Positions 25,850-44,584 of a stretch of 64,000 bases of DNA are shown here, one piece after another (the first letter of the stretch is position 1; each line of letters starts with the position of its first letter). Both the position numbers and the translations under genes were made by a program. The notes below the pieces were generated by a model that saw nothing but the letters and a program-made list of their open reading frames with translations, was not told where the DNA came from and searched no databases. Origin of the DNA: Escherichia phage phiC120; sequence record KY703222. One strand, 5' to 3'.

Positions 25850-26052
25850 TATTCTTCGACATGCTTTTTACGACCTTTCTTATCAATAAAGGTATATTCC
25901 ATAAAGCGTCCATGATAACGACGTTCAACATCGTGAGGGGTGTTAATAGGACACTTAGTCTGACGAATTTCTTCCCATTCACGAATAATAACTGCTTTAT
26001 TCTTTGGGTCATACGGGTGAGGATAATGCACATTCATAACAATGGTTCCCAA
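25825..26052 (-). CDS. Hypothetical protein
   Basis: 75-aa ORF. Confidence 0.4.
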   Translation of the reverse strand: MGTIVMNVHYPHPYDPKNKAVIIREWEEIRQTKCPINTPHDVERRYHGRFMEYTFIDKKGRKKHVEEYCMQVKWL

Positions 26053-26501
26053 TCAACAATCACAATTTCTAGTTTAGTGGAATATGTATCAAGAATTTCT
26101 TCAATGATATCCCAGTTTCCACCACCTATACCTGCTCCAATTCTTGGCATGTAAATCACAGGCTTTGTTATCTTATTTTTTCCGAATTCATTTAATTCTA
26201 TTATACAATTCATTAAAGCAGAGTACTCAAAATTAGGTCCCGGCTCAAACTGAGTATAAAGATTAAAGCAATAAGCTTTATGAGTCTTAAAATATTTTTC
26301 ATAAACCGAATAAGTCCCAAGTTTAGACTCGTCTCCGAATTCAGTTTGAAGTTTATCGGCTTCCAGAATTTTTGGATAAGCCTTTGCCAATTGACCTGCT
26401 ACACCGGCGCCCATTGTATGAAAACAATTGCACCCATGAGCAATATTATTACCTTTAGAAAACAGGGCGACAATATCGCCCTTGATATAGTTTTTAATCA
26501 C
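26034..26501 (-). CDS. Macro-domain protein, TARG1/DarG-like
   Basis: 155 aa; GDIVALFSKGNNIAHGCNCFHTMGAGVAGQL and PRIGAGIGGGNWDIIEEIL resemble the two glycine-rich ADP-ribose-binding loops of TARG1-type macro domains. Confidence 0.55.
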   Translation of the reverse strand: MIKNYIKGDIVALFSKGNNIAHGCNCFHTMGAGVAGQLAKAYPKILEADKLQTEFGDESKLGTYSVYEKYFKTHKAYCFNLYTQFEPGPNFEYSALMNCIIELNEFGKNKITKPVIYMPRIGAGIGGGNWDIIEEILDTYSTKLEIVIVDWEPLL

Positions 26502-26841: not shown

Positions 26842-27380
26842 TCTTTTATTTCCAGTAGTTTATTTGATTTAAGGTAATTAGCCTTTTCTAGGACTTCAGA
26901 AGCATATTTACTTCCAGCACTTGTCTTCCATCCCGCATTATATGAGGATATAGCTTTTCTTATATCCCCGTTATGTATATTTAACCAATAAGAAAATTCG
27001 ATATAAGCCCATCTGGCTGAATTAGACCGCTTAGATAGCATTTTCTTAATTTGGGCATCAGTCATATTATAACCAAGCTGGTTAATTCTTGCCCTCATTG
27101 TTGGTAGATAGTTTTGGAACATTCCATACGCATGGTGACCTTTCTTATCTTTAAGATTAATACCGGCAGATGATTCTTGCCATAGTATTGCGGCCATTAT
27201 GTATCCAAGTCCTTTCTTATGCATATTTTCATGCGTTTTAAATTTTCCGTCCTTAGAAAATTGTTCCCCAAACTGATAAGCATAATTCAAGTTATCGAGT
27301 TGGACATTACTAAAAGTATGCTCGGAGCTATGTGCTGATAATGAAAGAGCAAATAGACCAGCGAGTAGTGCTTTTCTCAT
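26838..27380 (-). CDS. Secreted lytic-transglycosylase-like protein (vs.1 position)
   Basis: Signal peptide MRKALLAGLFALSLSA; LWQESSAG resembles the SLT catalytic E-S motif. Confidence 0.55.
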   Translation of the reverse strand: MRKALLAGLFALSLSAHSSEHTFSNVQLDNLNYAYQFGEQFSKDGKFKTHENMHKKGLGYIMAAILWQESSAGINLKDKKGHHAYGMFQNYLPTMRARINQLGYNMTDAQIKKMLSKRSNSARWAYIEFSYWLNIHNGDIRKAISSYNAGWKTSAGSKYASEVLEKANYLKSNKLLEIKE

Positions 27381-27388
27381 GTTTACCT

Positions 27389-27847
27389 CTAGATTTTAAT
27401 CACTGCTTTAGAAGCTTTTCCTGGTAGTCGTTTATTGTTAATAATAGCCATTCTACATTGAAGAGTCTTCATTTTGAATGCCGGATTTTCGCGACAAACT
27501 GTAAGGCCTAACCAAAGATTTCCATCAGTTATTTCTAAACGGCCTGGGCGGTATTCGACACCTTCGACAAAATCTTCATCAACATCTGGACGTGCCGGCA
27601 TTGATAAAAATTCTGCAACTTCTTTAACGTGATTTTTTACTTTACGAAATAATTCAAAAACGTAATTCTCATCTATTTCTCTCTGGATGGCACGATCTAA
27701 GAGATGTTGAGAATACTTGATATGAAAGCCTGGTAGTCCAAGAGACTTTGCAGCATCTTTTATACCGGCATTGATTTGACGAAACTCCGTTTCAAAGATT
27801 CGACGGAGTTTATTGCGACGGATAAAAACTTCCGAATTGATAGTCAT
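27389..27847 (-). CDS. regB: Endoribonuclease RegB
   Basis: 152 aa; MTINSEVFIRRNKLRR...YSQHLLDRAIQREIDENYVFELF...LQCRMAIINNKRLPGKASKAVIKI matches T4 RegB. Confidence 0.85.
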   Translation of the reverse strand: MTINSEVFIRRNKLRRIFETEFRQINAGIKDAAKSLGLPGFHIKYSQHLLDRAIQREIDENYVFELFRKVKNHVKEVAEFLSMPARPDVDEDFVEGVEYRPGRLEITDGNLWLGLTVCRENPAFKMKTLQCRMAIINNKRLPGKASKAVIKI

Positions 27848-27875
27848 TTTTATTTCTCCTCTAGTTGACAGGTCT

Positions 27876-27904
27876 ATAGTAACACAACTAGAGGAGAAGT
27901 AAAC
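27876..27904 (-). promoter_or_regulatory. Early-type promoter (GTTTAC -35, TACTAT -10) for regB with anti-SD arm in the spacer
   Basis: Minus strand GTTTAC-N17-TACTAT; 12-bp perfect inverted repeat 27856..27867 / 27885..27896 pairs the spacer with the regB SD GAGGAG. Confidence 0.6.
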
Positions 27905-27908
27905 TACT

Positions 27909-28124
27909 TTATTGATAAAATGGAGTTAAAGTCCAAGATTCTTTAGATACCATATCGGCGAAATGTCTCATCTCTTCGATTTGGCGACGACGCTGGTCAG
28001 CATAATCTTCTTCGCCTTCTTCCTTACAATCTTCAAGGTCTTCTTCAAGATACTTTAAGTATTCACTACAAATTTTGTTGACCTTTTCCTGGAAGTCCAA
28101 TAACCCAGTAATAGTAGAAGCCAT
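27909..28124 (-). CDS. Hypothetical acidic protein (vs.3 position)
   Basis: 71-aa ORF. Confidence 0.45.
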   Translation of the reverse strand: MASTITGLLDFQEKVNKICSEYLKYLEEDLEDCKEEGEEDYADQRRRQIEEMRHFADMVSKESWTLTPFYQ

Positions 28125-28390
28125 TAGTATTTTTCCTCAGGACGAAATACTGCACGACAGGCCCACATGCTGGCTTCTTTTAGATGTTGCTTAGCGTACT
28201 TAAGAGCCTGCACTGCATCCATATCTTCTTTGGTTTGATGCTCTGTTTCATTTTCTTTCAAGATATAGGCTTCTTCAATCAGAGCATCAAACATCAATCC
28301 AAGACGGACTTCTGCATCTTTAATAGCGTTCACTTTACCTATTTTATCGTCGGTATGTGGCTTGTAGCCTTTAATATCTTCAATCGACAT
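28124..28390 (-). CDS. Small protein at the T4 vs.4 (Acb2) position; candidate anti-CBASS cyclic-nucleotide sponge
   Basis: ORF 28124..28558 with start at internal Met 28390 (GAGGA SD; ATG overlaps upstream stop); 88 aa MSIEDIKGYKPHTDDKIGKV...; assignment is positional only. Confidence 0.4.
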   Translation of the reverse strand: MSIEDIKGYKPHTDDKIGKVNAIKDAEVRLGLMFDALIEEAYILKENETEHQTKEDMDAVQALKYAKQHLKEASMWACRAVFRPEEKY

Positions 28391-28604
28391 AAGGAATTTC
28401 CTCATCGGTGGCAAGGTCATATTCGACCAATTGGATAGGCTCATTAATACCATATCCACGTACAATGATATCAGTTGTCGGATAGTTTCCAGTAATATCA
28501 CCCATTCTAAATGCTTCAGTGAATGATTGCTCGCCTGAGCAACTAAACCAGGCGGCAAAACATTTTAAAACATCTTCAGACCCTTCTATAATCAATTTAG
28601 CCAT
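28380..28604 (-). CDS. Hypothetical protein (vs.5 position)
   Basis: 74-aa ORF, stop overlaps the next ATG. Confidence 0.45.
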   Translation of the reverse strand: MAKLIIEGSEDVLKCFAAWFSCSGEQSFTEAFRMGDITGNYPTTDIIVRGYGINEPIQLVEYDLATDEEIPYVD

Positions 28605-28966
28605 TATAGACTCTCAGTAAAGGTACGAGCGATAACGTCGCGCTGCTGTTCCGGAGTCAGAGAGTTAAAGCGAACTGCATAACCGGATACACGGATGGTC
28701 AGCTGCGGATATTTTTCCGGATGCTTAACTGCATCTTCCAGAGTTTCCCGACGCAGAACGTTAACGTTCAGATGTTGACCACCTTCAATTTTAACTTTAG
28801 GTTGATGTTCAATTTCAATTTCACGGGCATTCAAACCGTAGAAAATTTCCGGGTCTACAATAGCGTCTTCTTTAAAAGTCTTAGAGACAATAATCCGGGC
28901 TTGAGTACCGTCTTCAAAATAAATAGTGCCTTTATGTGTACCTTCAAGAATTTGATATGCTTTCAT
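28604..28966 (-). CDS. Hypothetical protein (vs.6 position)
   Basis: 120-aa ORF. Confidence 0.5.
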
Positions 28967-28972
28967 ATAACC

Positions 28973-29281
28973 TCAATTAGAAAATAAATTTATCCAAGTT
29001 TTTTCTTTAATCAAAAATGGGTCGGAATTAAACGCCATTAAACTTTGAGTGATTAATCCCTTAAATGGCCCATCAATAAATTCCATTTTGAAATGCGGAA
29101 TACTAGTCATCAGTCGTGCATTAGGAGCAGTACAAAGAACCTGCTGCCCTGCGAACGGACCTTTAGTCAAACGATATCGTTTAGGTTTAAAATGGTAAAT
29201 CTCGTAATTTTCTACAAGAGCCCTTTTATTGCATACTGGGCTGTTATAACAATACTCAAAAACTTCAATAGTGGTCATCAT
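28973..29281 (-). CDS. Hypothetical protein (vs.7 position)
   Basis: 102-aa ORF. Confidence 0.45.
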   Translation of the reverse strand: MMTTIEVFEYCYNSPVCNKRALVENYEIYHFKPKRYRLTKGPFAGQQVLCTAPNARLMTSIPHFKMEFIDGPFKGLITQSLMAFNSDPFLIKEKTWINLFSN

Positions 29282-29817
29282 TGCATTCCAATCACAAAAA
29301 ATTGAGGACGAGCATTACCGCCGTTGCAATATTTGCTTTTGCAACAGTGTTGGACTGTTTTAATATGTACATTGTAAATCTTATCCATATCAGGAGCTTT
29401 AATAGGCTCGTCAATTATGTATAGAATACGAGAAAGCGTTAATCCACGGAATTTAGAACCTTCATTGCCAATAAAACTACGAACAGAATCAGTAAATAAA
29501 CGGAATCGAATATCGTCGCTAGAATAACGAGAAAATTCTTTTTTAATGTTGCCAGCAGAAATTTTAGAATAAGCTGAAGTATTAGAAAGAACAATAACTG
29601 TTCCGCCATCATACAGCCAATTAACAGCAAAATTAGTTACTGCGGTCGATTTACCTGATTGTCTGCCGCCGTCTAAACGAAGTGTACAGTACTGCTTGAG
29701 TACGTCTTCAAATGGTGGGGCATAACCGTTCTTACAAATTTCTTCTACTCTAGCATCAGAATGGTGTGTAAAAGCATTCATCAGGGATAGATAAGGTCCG
29801 GTTAAAAATGTTCTCAT
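29278..29817 (-). CDS. P-loop NTPase (vs.8 position)
   Basis: 179 aa; Walker A LDGGRQSGKSTAV. Confidence 0.5.
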   Translation of the reverse strand: MRTFLTGPYLSLMNAFTHHSDARVEEICKNGYAPPFEDVLKQYCTLRLDGGRQSGKSTAVTNFAVNWLYDGGTVIVLSNTSAYSKISAGNIKKEFSRYSSDDIRFRLFTDSVRSFIGNEGSKFRGLTLSRILYIIDEPIKAPDMDKIYNVHIKTVQHCCKSKYCNGGNARPQFFVIGMQ

Positions 29818-29991
29818 TTAGTTTCTCTTTTAGGTTGGGGCCATTCCATGGCACATGTTAGGTCCTTCGACTCGCTATGTAAACCCATTACCGCACTTGG
29901 GCTCGACCTTATTACAGGTTGGAAAAGGTACATCACTCAGAGGACTCGACGTTCATGAGGAGAGGTTGCGTTTCCCTTTATTAGGCAAGAA

Positions 29992-30321
29992 TTATACTCT
30001 AGGCTTTTGAGCTTGTTTGGTATTGGATTCCCATGCGGCTTTGGTAATTTTGTTAGCGGCATAACCAAAGGCATTAGATAGAACACCTTTAGAGTTGAAT
30101 ACATCCAATCCAATAAGTACACCAGCTGCGTTAAATTTAGGAGCAAAGTATGCATTAGTTTTAGAAAGAGCTTTTTTCAATTCAGGGTCTTGAACCAAGC
30201 CATCAAAAACGCCTTTACCATTTACTTTATATGTTACTTTGGGATTTTTACCTTCTTCGATAGCAGCTTTCTGTTCCGCAGATAATGTAACTTCAGTGAT
30301 AAATTCTTGATACGTTTTCAT
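29992..30321 (-). CDS. Internal protein with capsid targeting sequence (IP-like)
   Basis: N-terminus MKTYQEFITE equals the T4 internal-protein capsid targeting sequence; Ala/Lys-rich 109 aa. Confidence 0.7.
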   Translation of the reverse strand: MKTYQEFITEVTLSAEQKAAIEEGKNPKVTYKVNGKGVFDGLVQDPELKKALSKTNAYFAPKFNAAGVLIGLDVFNSKGVLSNAFGYAANKITKAAWESNTKQAQKPRV

Positions 30322-30350
30322 ATGTTTCCTTTAAATGTAAATAGGCCTTA

Positions 30351-30929
30351 TTAATTACCACGGGCCGCATTAGCGACGGCGTAAGCGTACTGAACATTAG
30401 CGTCTTTAAACGTACCTTTAGAGGTATCTATTTCTGCCTTAAAGCCACCTTTAGCCATAACATCGGCAAATTCTTTACGGAAAGTCATTGCATCAAGACC
30501 TTTCCATGATGATTTATGCTTGGCAAATTCAAGACCAGCGTAGTTGACAGCTTTAGCCAATTTATTATCAATGACCCATTTACCTGCTTTAGGCACAAAC
30601 TTCGGGCCTTTTTGTTTAGAGAACAGTTTTAAATTCCAGCGACGAAGGTCACTGTCGGCTTTAACAAAAGCTGCGTCTAAGTTACTAGCAACAACATCTT
30701 CAATATGAGCAAATTTAAGTCCGTCAACTTCAATATTTAGATCGTTACGCCAGCGTAGTCCTTCCCAAGCGAAGGCTTTAAAATCAGAAGCTTTTGTGGC
30801 TAGATATCGTTCAAGTGGAGCAGTTTTAGGGTCAAAACCATTTCCGCCACGATAATTCCACTCGTCCTTATTAATGCCTTGAGCTTTTCCTGCAAAGGCC
30901 TCGGCGATAAATTCTTTATATGTTTTCAT
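30351..30929 (-). CDS. Internal protein with capsid targeting sequence (IP-like)
   Basis: N-terminus MKTYKEFIAE; 192 aa. Confidence 0.7.
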   Translation of the reverse strand: MKTYKEFIAEAFAGKAQGINKDEWNYRGGNGFDPKTAPLERYLATKASDFKAFAWEGLRWRNDLNIEVDGLKFAHIEDVVASNLDAAFVKADSDLRRWNLKLFSKQKGPKFVPKAGKWVIDNKLAKAVNYAGLEFAKHKSSWKGLDAMTFRKEFADVMAKGGFKAEIDTSKGTFKDANVQYAYAVANAARGN

Positions 30930-30959
30930 TTTTGTTTCCTTGTTTGTTTTGATAGAGTA

Positions 30960-30989
30960 ATTATACCATATTAATACTTAAGCGTAAAC
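30960..30989 (-). promoter_or_regulatory. Early-type promoter GTTTAC-N18-TATAAT
   Basis: Upstream of the IP-like gene 30351..30929. Confidence 0.5.
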
Positions 30990-30992
30990 AAT

Positions 30993-31253
30993 TTAAGCTT
31001 TACCGCCAGAAATAATTCCGAAGTTGTTAAAATCGTATCCAATATCATCAGCATCTACTTTAGGACTTGCTACAACATAAGCAATTTCACTACGTTTTGC
31101 ATAGGTGTTGATTTCTTTACCATCGCCACCTAAGAAAGAATACCCATTACGTTTTAATGAGCCAAAGTCTTCCGCATCACCAATGAAAGCTTTAACTTTA
31201 AATTTGGGGTCTTTGGCATCCGCTTCAGTGATAAATTCTTGATACATTTTCAT
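30993..31253 (-). CDS. Internal protein with capsid targeting sequence (IP-like)
   Basis: N-terminus MKMYQEFITE; 86 aa. Confidence 0.65.
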   Translation of the reverse strand: MKMYQEFITEADAKDPKFKVKAFIGDAEDFGSLKRNGYSFLGGDGKEINTYAKRSEIAYVVASPKVDADDIGYDFNNFGIISGGKA

Positions 31254-31259
31254 TTTTCC

Positions 31260-31673
31260 TTAGTAAATTGATTTACCATAGTATTTGTACCAAGTGGGAC
31301 GTTGAGCAATTTTTTCATCTAAGCGTGCTTGACTTATCGCAATGGACGCTTCGGACGGGACATAATTATTACGAAATTCTACAGGAATGTCGGAAATATC
31401 CTGGACTGTCGTGTCCTTGATTTTGAAACCACGTTTCAAACATTCAGCTATTAGCTCGATTTGACGTAAACGTAAAAATTCGAGTTTGTCGTAAAAGAAT
31501 GTTACGTGGCCCGTGCCTAAAATAAATGTTGGAGAGATTTTAAAATCTTTTACACGTTTACCATTTTGAACATGTTTACGGACTGCACCGAATACACGAG
31601 GTAATTCACGATACTCAGCCATAAGATGTTGGTCGGTCAGTTCAGAAACAAGTGTTAAATTGATACGAGTCAT
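31260..31673 (-). CDS. denV: Endonuclease V (pyrimidine-dimer DNA glycosylase) DenV
   Basis: [34 protein letters not shown]...[10 protein letters not shown] matches T4 endo V; start at internal Met of ORF 31260..31685. Confidence 0.92.
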
Positions 31674-31700
31674 AATTTCCTCCAAGTAGTTGATAGATGT

Positions 31701-31730
31701 ATAGTATCAAAACCCTTGGAGGAAGTAAAC
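31701..31730 (-). promoter_or_regulatory. Early-type promoter for denV with anti-SD arm in the spacer
   Basis: GTTTAC -35 at 31725..31730; 10-bp perfect inverted repeat 31677..31686 / 31715..31724 pairs the spacer with the denV SD GGAGG. Confidence 0.6.
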
Positions 31731-31731
31731 A

Positions 31732-32013
31732 CTATTTTTCTGAAGCGCCTGAAATATATTTTTCAAGACGTTGTTTCATTAACGAGCCGTTCTTAGCGAT
31801 TTCTTCCGGTTTATCGCACATACGCAGCAGTGCTTCAAGCTTAACGATATCACTGGTGCGCTCAAATTTGCGAGTATCTATCTTACTGGCAAGTTCAGAA
31901 ATACGTGCTAATAGACTTTCAGCTTCAACTAAAGCTGCACCTAGCTTAGTTGCAAATGTGTCAGTAGCTTCGTTAAGAATAGATTCTGATAAAAATTCAC
32001 TATATGTTTTCAT
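31732..32013 (-). CDS. Internal protein with capsid targeting sequence (ipII/ipIII position)
   Basis: Start at internal Met gives [10 protein letters not shown]; sits between denV and e as T4 ipII/ipIII do. Confidence 0.65.
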
Positions 32014-32498
32014 ATATACGCTTTCCAAGTTCCTGTTTTAAATGTTGAGATTACGCGTTTCGCGCGATTAGGTGTCTGACGATACCATTTAGATTGGGCT
32101 AGATTTACTGCCGCTTCATCCCAACGTTTCTGTTGAAGCATACGAAGAGAATTAGTAAAACCAGCAACGCCTGCTACACCCATTTGAAAGACCATATTGA
32201 CCAATGCACATCGACGAACCGCATCTAAAGAATCATATACCGGTTTAAGTTTAGCATTACCCAAGATTCCGCGAACGGCTTTATCGACGTCTTCATTAAA
32301 TAGCTTTTCAGCCTCATCAAGGGTAATTGTACCGTTGCATTTACGACCGATCATTCTGTCAAGTTCAGCTTTAGCTACGGCTAAAGACGGGTTCTTTGTT
32401 ACTAAATGGCCTATGCCAATCGTCCAAAAGCCTTCGGTGTCTTTGTATAAAGTCAGTCTAAGACCTTCGTCATTACGAAGCATTTCAAATATATTCAT
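32010..32498 (-). CDS. e: Lysozyme (endolysin)
   Basis: 162 aa [32 protein letters not shown]...[18 protein letters not shown], near-identical to T4 lysozyme including the catalytic Glu/Asp/Thr context. Confidence 0.97.

Positions 32499-43898: not shown

Positions 43899-44584
<686 letters not shown>

Follow-up and report, generated by a model that had tools for sequence, protein, structure and literature searches.

Gene order and layout of the acb2 locus

The window analysed here (the whole 64,000-nucleotide stretch of Escherichia phage phiC120 DNA, record KY703222) carries a train of genes in the order regB, a vs.3-like ORF, acb2, vs.5, vs.6, vs.7, vs.8, three small ORFs and denV. regB lies at 27389..27847 and was recognized by its Pfam match (REGB_T4, E 4e-69), and denV (31260..31685) is found beyond vs.8 and the three small ORFs. 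The acb2/vs.4 coding sequence occupies 28124..28390 on the minus strand (88 codons plus TAA), a strand assignment that was absent from the earlier note on this DNA. According to the ORF listing and the sequence, the ATG is at 28390-28388 and the TAA at 28126-28124; the 88-aa product begins MSIEDIKGYKPHTDDKIGKV and reads in full MSIEDIKGYKPHTDDKIGKVNAIKDAEVRLGLMFDALIEEAYILKENETEHQTKEDMDAVQALKYAKQHLKEASMWACRAVFRPEEKY. By counting genes from regB to denV, the earlier note had placed this ORF in the slot of T4 vs.4, and the annotated RB69 and T4 maps bear this out: their gene order is that of the window, and the corresponding slot is vs.4, on the same strand and adjoining regB, the small ORF between regB and vs.4 being vs.3 in T4 and ORF117c in RB69. 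In the window, the ORF downstream of acb2 has 40% identity to T4 Vs.3, the ORF upstream of it matches the start of T4 Vs.5, and the vs.6 product is a GrcA-like glycyl-radical protein.

The acb2 gene is tightly packed between its neighbours. The stop codon (28380-28382) of vs.5 (28380..28604, minus strand, 74 aa) overlaps acb2 by 11 nt, so that the acb2 ATG lies inside the end of vs.5, and a Shine-Dalgarno-like GAGG (28400..28403, minus strand) can be read in the sequence 9 nt 5' of the ATG, within the 3' end of vs.5. At the other end, the acb2 TAA and the ATG of the downstream gene share the last A (TAATG). Tight packing of this kind is usual among T-even early-region genes, and the arrangement suggests that vs.5 and acb2 may be translationally coupled. 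The T4 Vs.5 protein (58 aa; L002 5382-5558) matches the 74-aa Vs.5 of the window as two separate segments, each in a different frame, suggesting that either the T4 or the window vs.5 may be frameshifted relative to the other.

A longer, TTG-initiated ORF of 144 aa in the same frame (28124..28558) was rejected as the coding unit, as it overlaps vs.5 and the homologues all start at the ATG. The 88-aa ORF is not a chance ORF, because homologues are present in 1230 phage records and the terminal segments of the gene have dN/dS values of ~0.07-0.11 (see below). A scan for sigma-70 promoters and terminators over 27300-31800 returned sites no more numerous than in shuffled sequence, and the MotA-box pattern had no match near acb2; the timing of acb2 expression can thus be judged solely from the co-oriented, overlapping gene train.

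Genome context

The window is an RB69-like T-even genome. It is collinear with, and ~97% identical to, RB69-like Mosigvirus genomes through nrdD, the clamp loader, tk, regB, denV, 57B and the baseplate genes, and the 2.6 kb around acb2 show 100% identity to Escherichia phage Av-05, 97.8% to phiE142, and ~97% to RB69 and many Mosigvirus isolates. NCBI taxonomy places Av-05 (taxid 1527519) in Vequintavirinae/Avunavirus, though the window is Mosigvirus-like, and the Av-05 and phiE142 records are only ~121 kb long, compared with ~168 kb for their relatives; the taxonomy or the assembly looks inconsistent.

The same phage encodes a homologue of Acb1 (T4 57B) at 43902..44357 on the minus strand, with 85.5% amino acid identity to the T4 protein and a PF23474 match (E 7.5e-59). 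Both Acb1 and Acb2 are therefore encoded by this phage, as they are by T4. Two genes past regB, the tk.4 homologue (26034..26501, minus strand) encodes a Macro-domain protein (PF01661, E 1.5e-6), for which an ADP-ribose-processing or anti-defence role is possible. Near denV, four ORFs on the minus strand (29992..30321, 30351..30929, 30993..31253 and 31732..32028) start with MKTYxEFIxE or a near variant, their bodies differ, and they have no Pfam matches. This start resembles the sequence that directs the T4 internal proteins (IPI, IPII and IPIII) to the capsid, and the four ORFs likely encode injected internal proteins. The internal-protein locus is a known hyperplastic anti-defence locus.

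Homology and predicted fold of the product

To identify the product, we compared it with sequence, profile and structure collections. A phmmer search against all PDB chains returned 7UQ2 (T4 Vs.4 with cGAMP; E 1.9e-30, residues 3-88) and no other credible match, and BLASTP against T4 Vs.4, the comparison that the earlier note had proposed, gave 57 identical residues of 87 (66%). The protein also matches the Pfam family PF24729 (Acb2_Tad1_hairpin; E 6.1e-18, 65.2 bits against a gathering cut-off of 27) and PHROG 717 (E 3.6e-28), the family behind the list of Vs.4 homologues of Jenson et al. (PMC10097602). With a profile built from 56 T4-like homologues, PaMx33 Acb2 (8H2J, 8IXZ) was reached at E 3.7e-5, with its Y11 opposite Y9 and its K26 opposite K24 of the window protein. 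The earlier note, working from position and size, had suggested an Acb2-like sponge, and had named a lack of similarity to the Acb2 family as evidence against it; the Pfam and profile matches, together with PHROG 717, the Foldseek match to 7UQ2 and the retention of all functional residues described below, place the protein in that family. Its equation of T4 vs.4 with Acb2 agrees with the literature (PMC10097602, PMC10312549, PMC12657218).

An AlphaFold2 monomer model computed from the same alignment (pLDDT 86.7) is a two-helix hairpin with helices at residues 14-42 and 50-81. The termini, which are the pocket-forming parts, have low confidence (pLDDT 61 and 69), as would be expected of parts that are ordered only in the hexamer; the model thus describes the hairpin rather than the pocket itself. 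In a Foldseek search of the PDB with the model, ranks 1-3 were chains of 7UQ2 (E 3.6e-7, TM 0.72-0.74), and PaMx33 Acb2 (8H2J and 8H2X) appeared lower down the list. Several weak matches were dismissed: Pfam DNA_pol_phi, which at 14 bits (E 0.011) fell short of its cut-off of 27.6, truncated haemoglobins in the phmmer search of the PDB (E 0.15-0.8), and CnrX, haptoglobin-receptor and BAR-domain proteins, which are generic helical hairpins. No NCBIfam family matched the product.

Conservation of the ligand pocket and the hexamer interface

In T4 Vs.4, Y8 and F82 sandwich the cGAMP molecule, and Y8, H11, K23 and R79 contact it; the protein is inactivated by S74N and by T12I, and its hexamer needs L29, A66, A73 and A77, with a contribution from F33 (PMC10097602). 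Mutating Y8, T12, L29, A66, A73, S74, A77 or F82 abolished either the sequestration of cGAMP or the hexamer (PMC10097602). Since the window protein has an extra Ser2, its N-terminal equivalents are shifted by one relative to T4. T4 Y8, H11, T12, K23, L29 and F33 correspond to Y9, H12, T13, K24, L30 and F34 here, all of them identical, and A66, A73, S74, A77, R79 and F82 are identical in the two proteins. By sequence, then, the equivalents of the five T4 hexamer-interface residues (L30, F34, A66, A73 and A77) are all present.

The conservation of these residues was calculated across 122 aligned sequences, comprising 120 database proteins together with those of Av-05 and T4, with identity measured to Av-05. 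Y9, H12, K24, A66, S74, R79 and F82 are invariant in all 122 sequences, and eleven of the twelve functional residues are conserved in at least 95% of them, in a set whose search required shared 5-mers and so favours proteins with conserved ends. At the F33-equivalent position, 67% of the aligned sequences have Phe and 31% have Leu. Codons 1-34 (28289..28390, minus strand; mean identity 0.88 over the 122 sequences) encode the N-terminal arm and the start of helix 1, and carry Y9, H12, T13 and K24 of the dinucleotide pocket and helix cap as well as L30 and F34 of the hexamer interface. Codons 70-88 (28127..28183, minus strand; mean identity 0.93) encode the C-terminal end of helix 2 and the tail, and carry A73 and A77 of the hexamer interface together with S74, R79 and F82, which serve in cGAMP contacts and stacking.

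A variable centre between constrained ends

Codons 35-69 (28184..28288, minus strand) form the hypervariable part of the hairpin, comprising the end of helix 1, the loop at about aa 43-49 and the start of helix 2. Among the 122 sequences, their mean identity to Av-05 is 0.25, with loop indels of up to ~10 residues, and their identity to T4 is only ~20% over what is about one third of the protein. To compare selection along the gene, we pooled Nei-Gojobori estimates over 40 distinct coding sequences (the acb2 of the window and 39 from viral contigs). dN/dS was 0.07-0.11 in the ends and 0.19-0.46 in the centre. Synonymous divergence was equally saturated in both, with a dS of ~1.4 against T4 in the ends. 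The acb2 ends are under strong purifying selection at the protein level, and recent recombination or gene conversion as the source of their conservation is ruled out by the saturated synonymous sites. Diversifying selection on the central segment was considered and is unsupported at the resolution of these pooled estimates, because the dN/dS there is below 1; the centre is much less constrained than the ends, with no overall excess of replacement changes.

There is a small chance, in our judgement, that the central variation exceeds drift, reflecting either a changed property of the three-fold face (for example, a second ligand site near Lys64, Gln61 and Gln68) or escape from a host factor that recognizes, or is baited by, the T4-type protein. 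If the centre were functionally distinct in this way, acb2 alleles would be non-equivalent in the CBASS/Panoptes arms race.

Exchange, alteration and distribution of acb2 alleles

The Gaprivervirus phages VR25 and VR26 (contigs L005 and L006, 2500-2765) carry the RB69-type acb2 allele. By blastn, their acb2 and that of Av-05 share 96.2% identity across 266 bp, an interval that coincides exactly with the ORF; the flanking DNA shows 65-78% identity or cannot be aligned. VR20 (L023), of the same genus as VR25, has 93% identity to VR25 over 4.9 kb, yet its acb2 encodes a 92-aa allele with only 43-55% identity to VR25 in the centre. From the gene-precise identity in VR25 and VR26 and the divergent allele in VR20, it follows that whole acb2 alleles have been exchanged between T-even genera, RB69-like (Mosigvirus-type) and Gaprivervirus. 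Recombination in the conserved gene ends is a plausible route for this exchange.

Two kinds of altered allele were also seen. In T2 Vs.4 (L051 283-543, LC348380), an N-terminus LKILRDKPHT... replaces MIEDIKGYKPHT, and the cGAMP-stacking Tyr8 is missing. The Panoptes paper reports that T2 is the T-even phage that Panoptes does not restrict, and this escape would fit an Acb2 that does not bind. The acb2 copies in the viral contigs L044, L047 and L048 (position 2501 onward) are frameshifted or prematurely ended, with products of 26 aa and 74 aa and a changed C-terminus; they may reflect either natural loss of function or sequencing error.

Proteins at least 95% identical to the acb2 product occur in 134 phage records. 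The exact protein is listed in GenBank as hypothetical protein Av05_00188 and is also present in phiE142; its UniRef name is "Acb2/Tad1 hairpin domain-containing protein", and near-identical Mosigvirus/RB69 database entries are named Vs.4.

Proposed mechanism and ligand range

In this RB69-like T-even phage, acb2 is orthologous to T4 vs.4 and very probably acts as a cyclic-dinucleotide sponge against CBASS. The orthology, the predicted monomer fold, the conservation of the functional residues and the purifying selection were established in this analysis; from the work on T4 and PaMx33, we infer hexamer formation, nanomolar binding and CBASS inhibition, so that the most likely function is that of a hexameric sponge that blunts CBASS. 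In the proposed mechanism, the 88-aa protein would fold as a two-helix hairpin, six copies of which would assemble into a hexamer with pockets at three two-fold interfaces, each built from the N-terminal arm and the C-terminal tail of two protomers. Each pocket would clamp one cyclic dinucleotide (3'3'-cGAMP or a related one) by stacking between Tyr9 and Phe82 and by polar contacts with His12, Lys24, Ser74 and Arg79, with a Kd of perhaps tens of nM by analogy with T4 and PaMx33 biochemistry. Sequestering the signal of the host cGAS-like enzyme would keep the CBASS effector (CapV in the T4 Vs.4 work; PMC10097602) switched off and would allow the phage to complete its replication.

PaMx33 Acb2 also binds cA3 on the three-fold axis, where R67 and T74 coordinate the phosphates of the ligand and A70 and I71 pack against it (Cao 2023, PMC10312549). 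In T4 Acb2 the pocket is too small to take cA3, and the D61R substitution does not confer binding; Y37, A57, L60, D61 and T64 were named as its clash residues (PMC10312549). By profile alignment to 8H2J, PaMx33 R67, A70, I71 and T74 become Q61, K64, Y65 and Q68 in the window protein, in agreement with Cao 2023, and the T4 clash positions are I38, M57, V60, Q61 and K64. The canonical trinucleotide site of the broad-spectrum PaMx33/JBD67 subtype is, on this alignment, absent here, and because Gln61 and Gln68 stand at the R67 and T74 positions, the protein probably binds dinucleotides only and not cA3, as in T4. This prediction is the least secure part of the interpretation because the segment is so unlike that of T4.

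The same segment bears on the alternative that a protein of the Acb2 fold has here acquired a shifted or widened specificity, its divergent centre forming a working three-fold-axis pocket for trinucleotides or another signal, either alongside the dinucleotide pocket or in its place. In PaMx33 Acb2 the cA3 pocket is lined by precisely this variable segment, 57 of the 122 aligned sequences have Arg at the pocket-facing position 64, where the window protein has Lys and T4 has Thr, and Acb2 homologues for other ligands, such as 3'cADPR, are known (bioRxiv 10.1101/2025.08.24.671296). However, the two residues essential for cA3 in PaMx33 are both Gln, the T4 pocket geometry is too small for cA3 even as D61R, and at the T4 clash positions A57 and T64 the window protein has the larger Met57 and Lys64. 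Moreover, the Thoeris-binding homologue Acb2_43 re-uses the vertex pocket by means of extra terminal beta-strands, whereas the window protein has essentially T4-like termini, and the residues of the dinucleotide pocket are fully intact. Altogether, a shifted or widened specificity appears quite improbable. The divergence also weighs to some degree against the sponge reading itself, in that aa 35-69 hold the L60 equivalent (Val here) and the hexamer-packing faces of the helices, and the assembly or the affinity could differ from T4.

Even less probable is that acb2 is a decaying or neutral remnant, a conserved hypothetical gene that at present serves no anti-defence purpose here. Such an outcome would be in keeping with the truncated and frameshifted copies in L044, L047 and L048, the T2 version lacking the stacking Tyr, and the selection for acb2 loss under Panoptes (PMC12657218). 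But the frame here is intact and has a ribosome-binding site and coupled stop and start codons, the functional residues are all retained, the pocket segments show the low dN/dS given above, and the allele is kept in the 134 phage records. The name of the Pfam family, which spans Acb2 and Tad1, might also suggest a Thoeris sponge of the Tad1 type in place of an Acb2; this is scarcely credible, considering that the 88-aa protein is the hairpin only, that Tad1 is larger and has a further domain, that T4 Vs.4 and PaMx33 Acb2 are its top matches in both sequence and structure, and that no Tad1 entry appeared in the PDB sequence, profile or fold searches. We favour the cyclic-dinucleotide sponge of the T4 type.

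A sponge of the T4 type may carry a liability. T4 Acb2 binds the Panoptes decoy 2'3'-c-di-AMP and thereby triggers Panoptes, an effect for which Y8 and F82 are required (PMC12657218). Because the equivalents of both residues are kept, this phage would be expected to be vulnerable to decoy-nucleotide guard systems such as Panoptes. Mosigvirus phages of the BASEL collection could not be traced in the text of the Panoptes paper, and our literature search on Acb2 in RB69 and Mosigvirus turned up no test of an RB69-type allele. As practical predictions, RB69-like phages should resist cGAMP-type CBASS and be sensitive to Panoptes-type guards; several of these phages have been proposed for biocontrol of E. 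coli O157, and RB69-like phages possess the two anti-CBASS tools that are known, Acb1 and Acb2. The identification holds and is of use to annotators, but this type of protein and its database label predate our analysis, and the new biology comes down to one modest observation, namely that the pocket-forming ends are frozen, the centre is free to vary, and whole alleles are swapped between genera. For annotation, Acb2 is the appropriate name for Av05_00188 and for its equivalents in over 130 RB69-like phage records.

Comparison with known systems

The closest known system is T4 Vs.4/Acb2 (7UQ2; PMC10097602). The two share the slot among vs.3, vs.4 and vs.5 next to regB, the length of 88 aa, 66% identity, the cGAMP-contact and hexamer-interface residues, the two-helix hairpin, and an Acb1 in the same phage. 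They differ in the extra Ser after the initiator Met of the window protein and in aa 35-69, where identity is only ~20% and the loop length is shifted by one residue; in this region the positions that line the closed three-fold pocket of T4 change from Y37 to I, A57 to M, L60 to V, D61 to Q, T64 to K and T68 to Q. PaMx33 Acb2 (8H2X, 8H2J, 8IXZ; Huiting 2023, Cao 2023 PMC10312549) belongs to the same family by profile and has the same fold, with Y11 and K26 at the positions of Y9 and K24, but it is only ~15% identical and its R67, A70, I71 and T74 are replaced here as described above. Acb2_43 (9PTQ; bioRxiv 10.1101/2025.08.24.671296) is likewise a member of the hexameric hairpin sponge family; it differs in that its extra N- and C-terminal beta-strands bind the Thoeris signal 3'cADPR and that it does not inhibit CBASS, whereas the termini of the window protein are of the T4 type. 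Acb1 (T4 57B, a 2H-type phosphodiesterase), of which the same phage encodes a homologue, also removes CBASS cyclic nucleotides; unlike Acb2, it is no sponge but a signal-cleaving enzyme with an unrelated fold.
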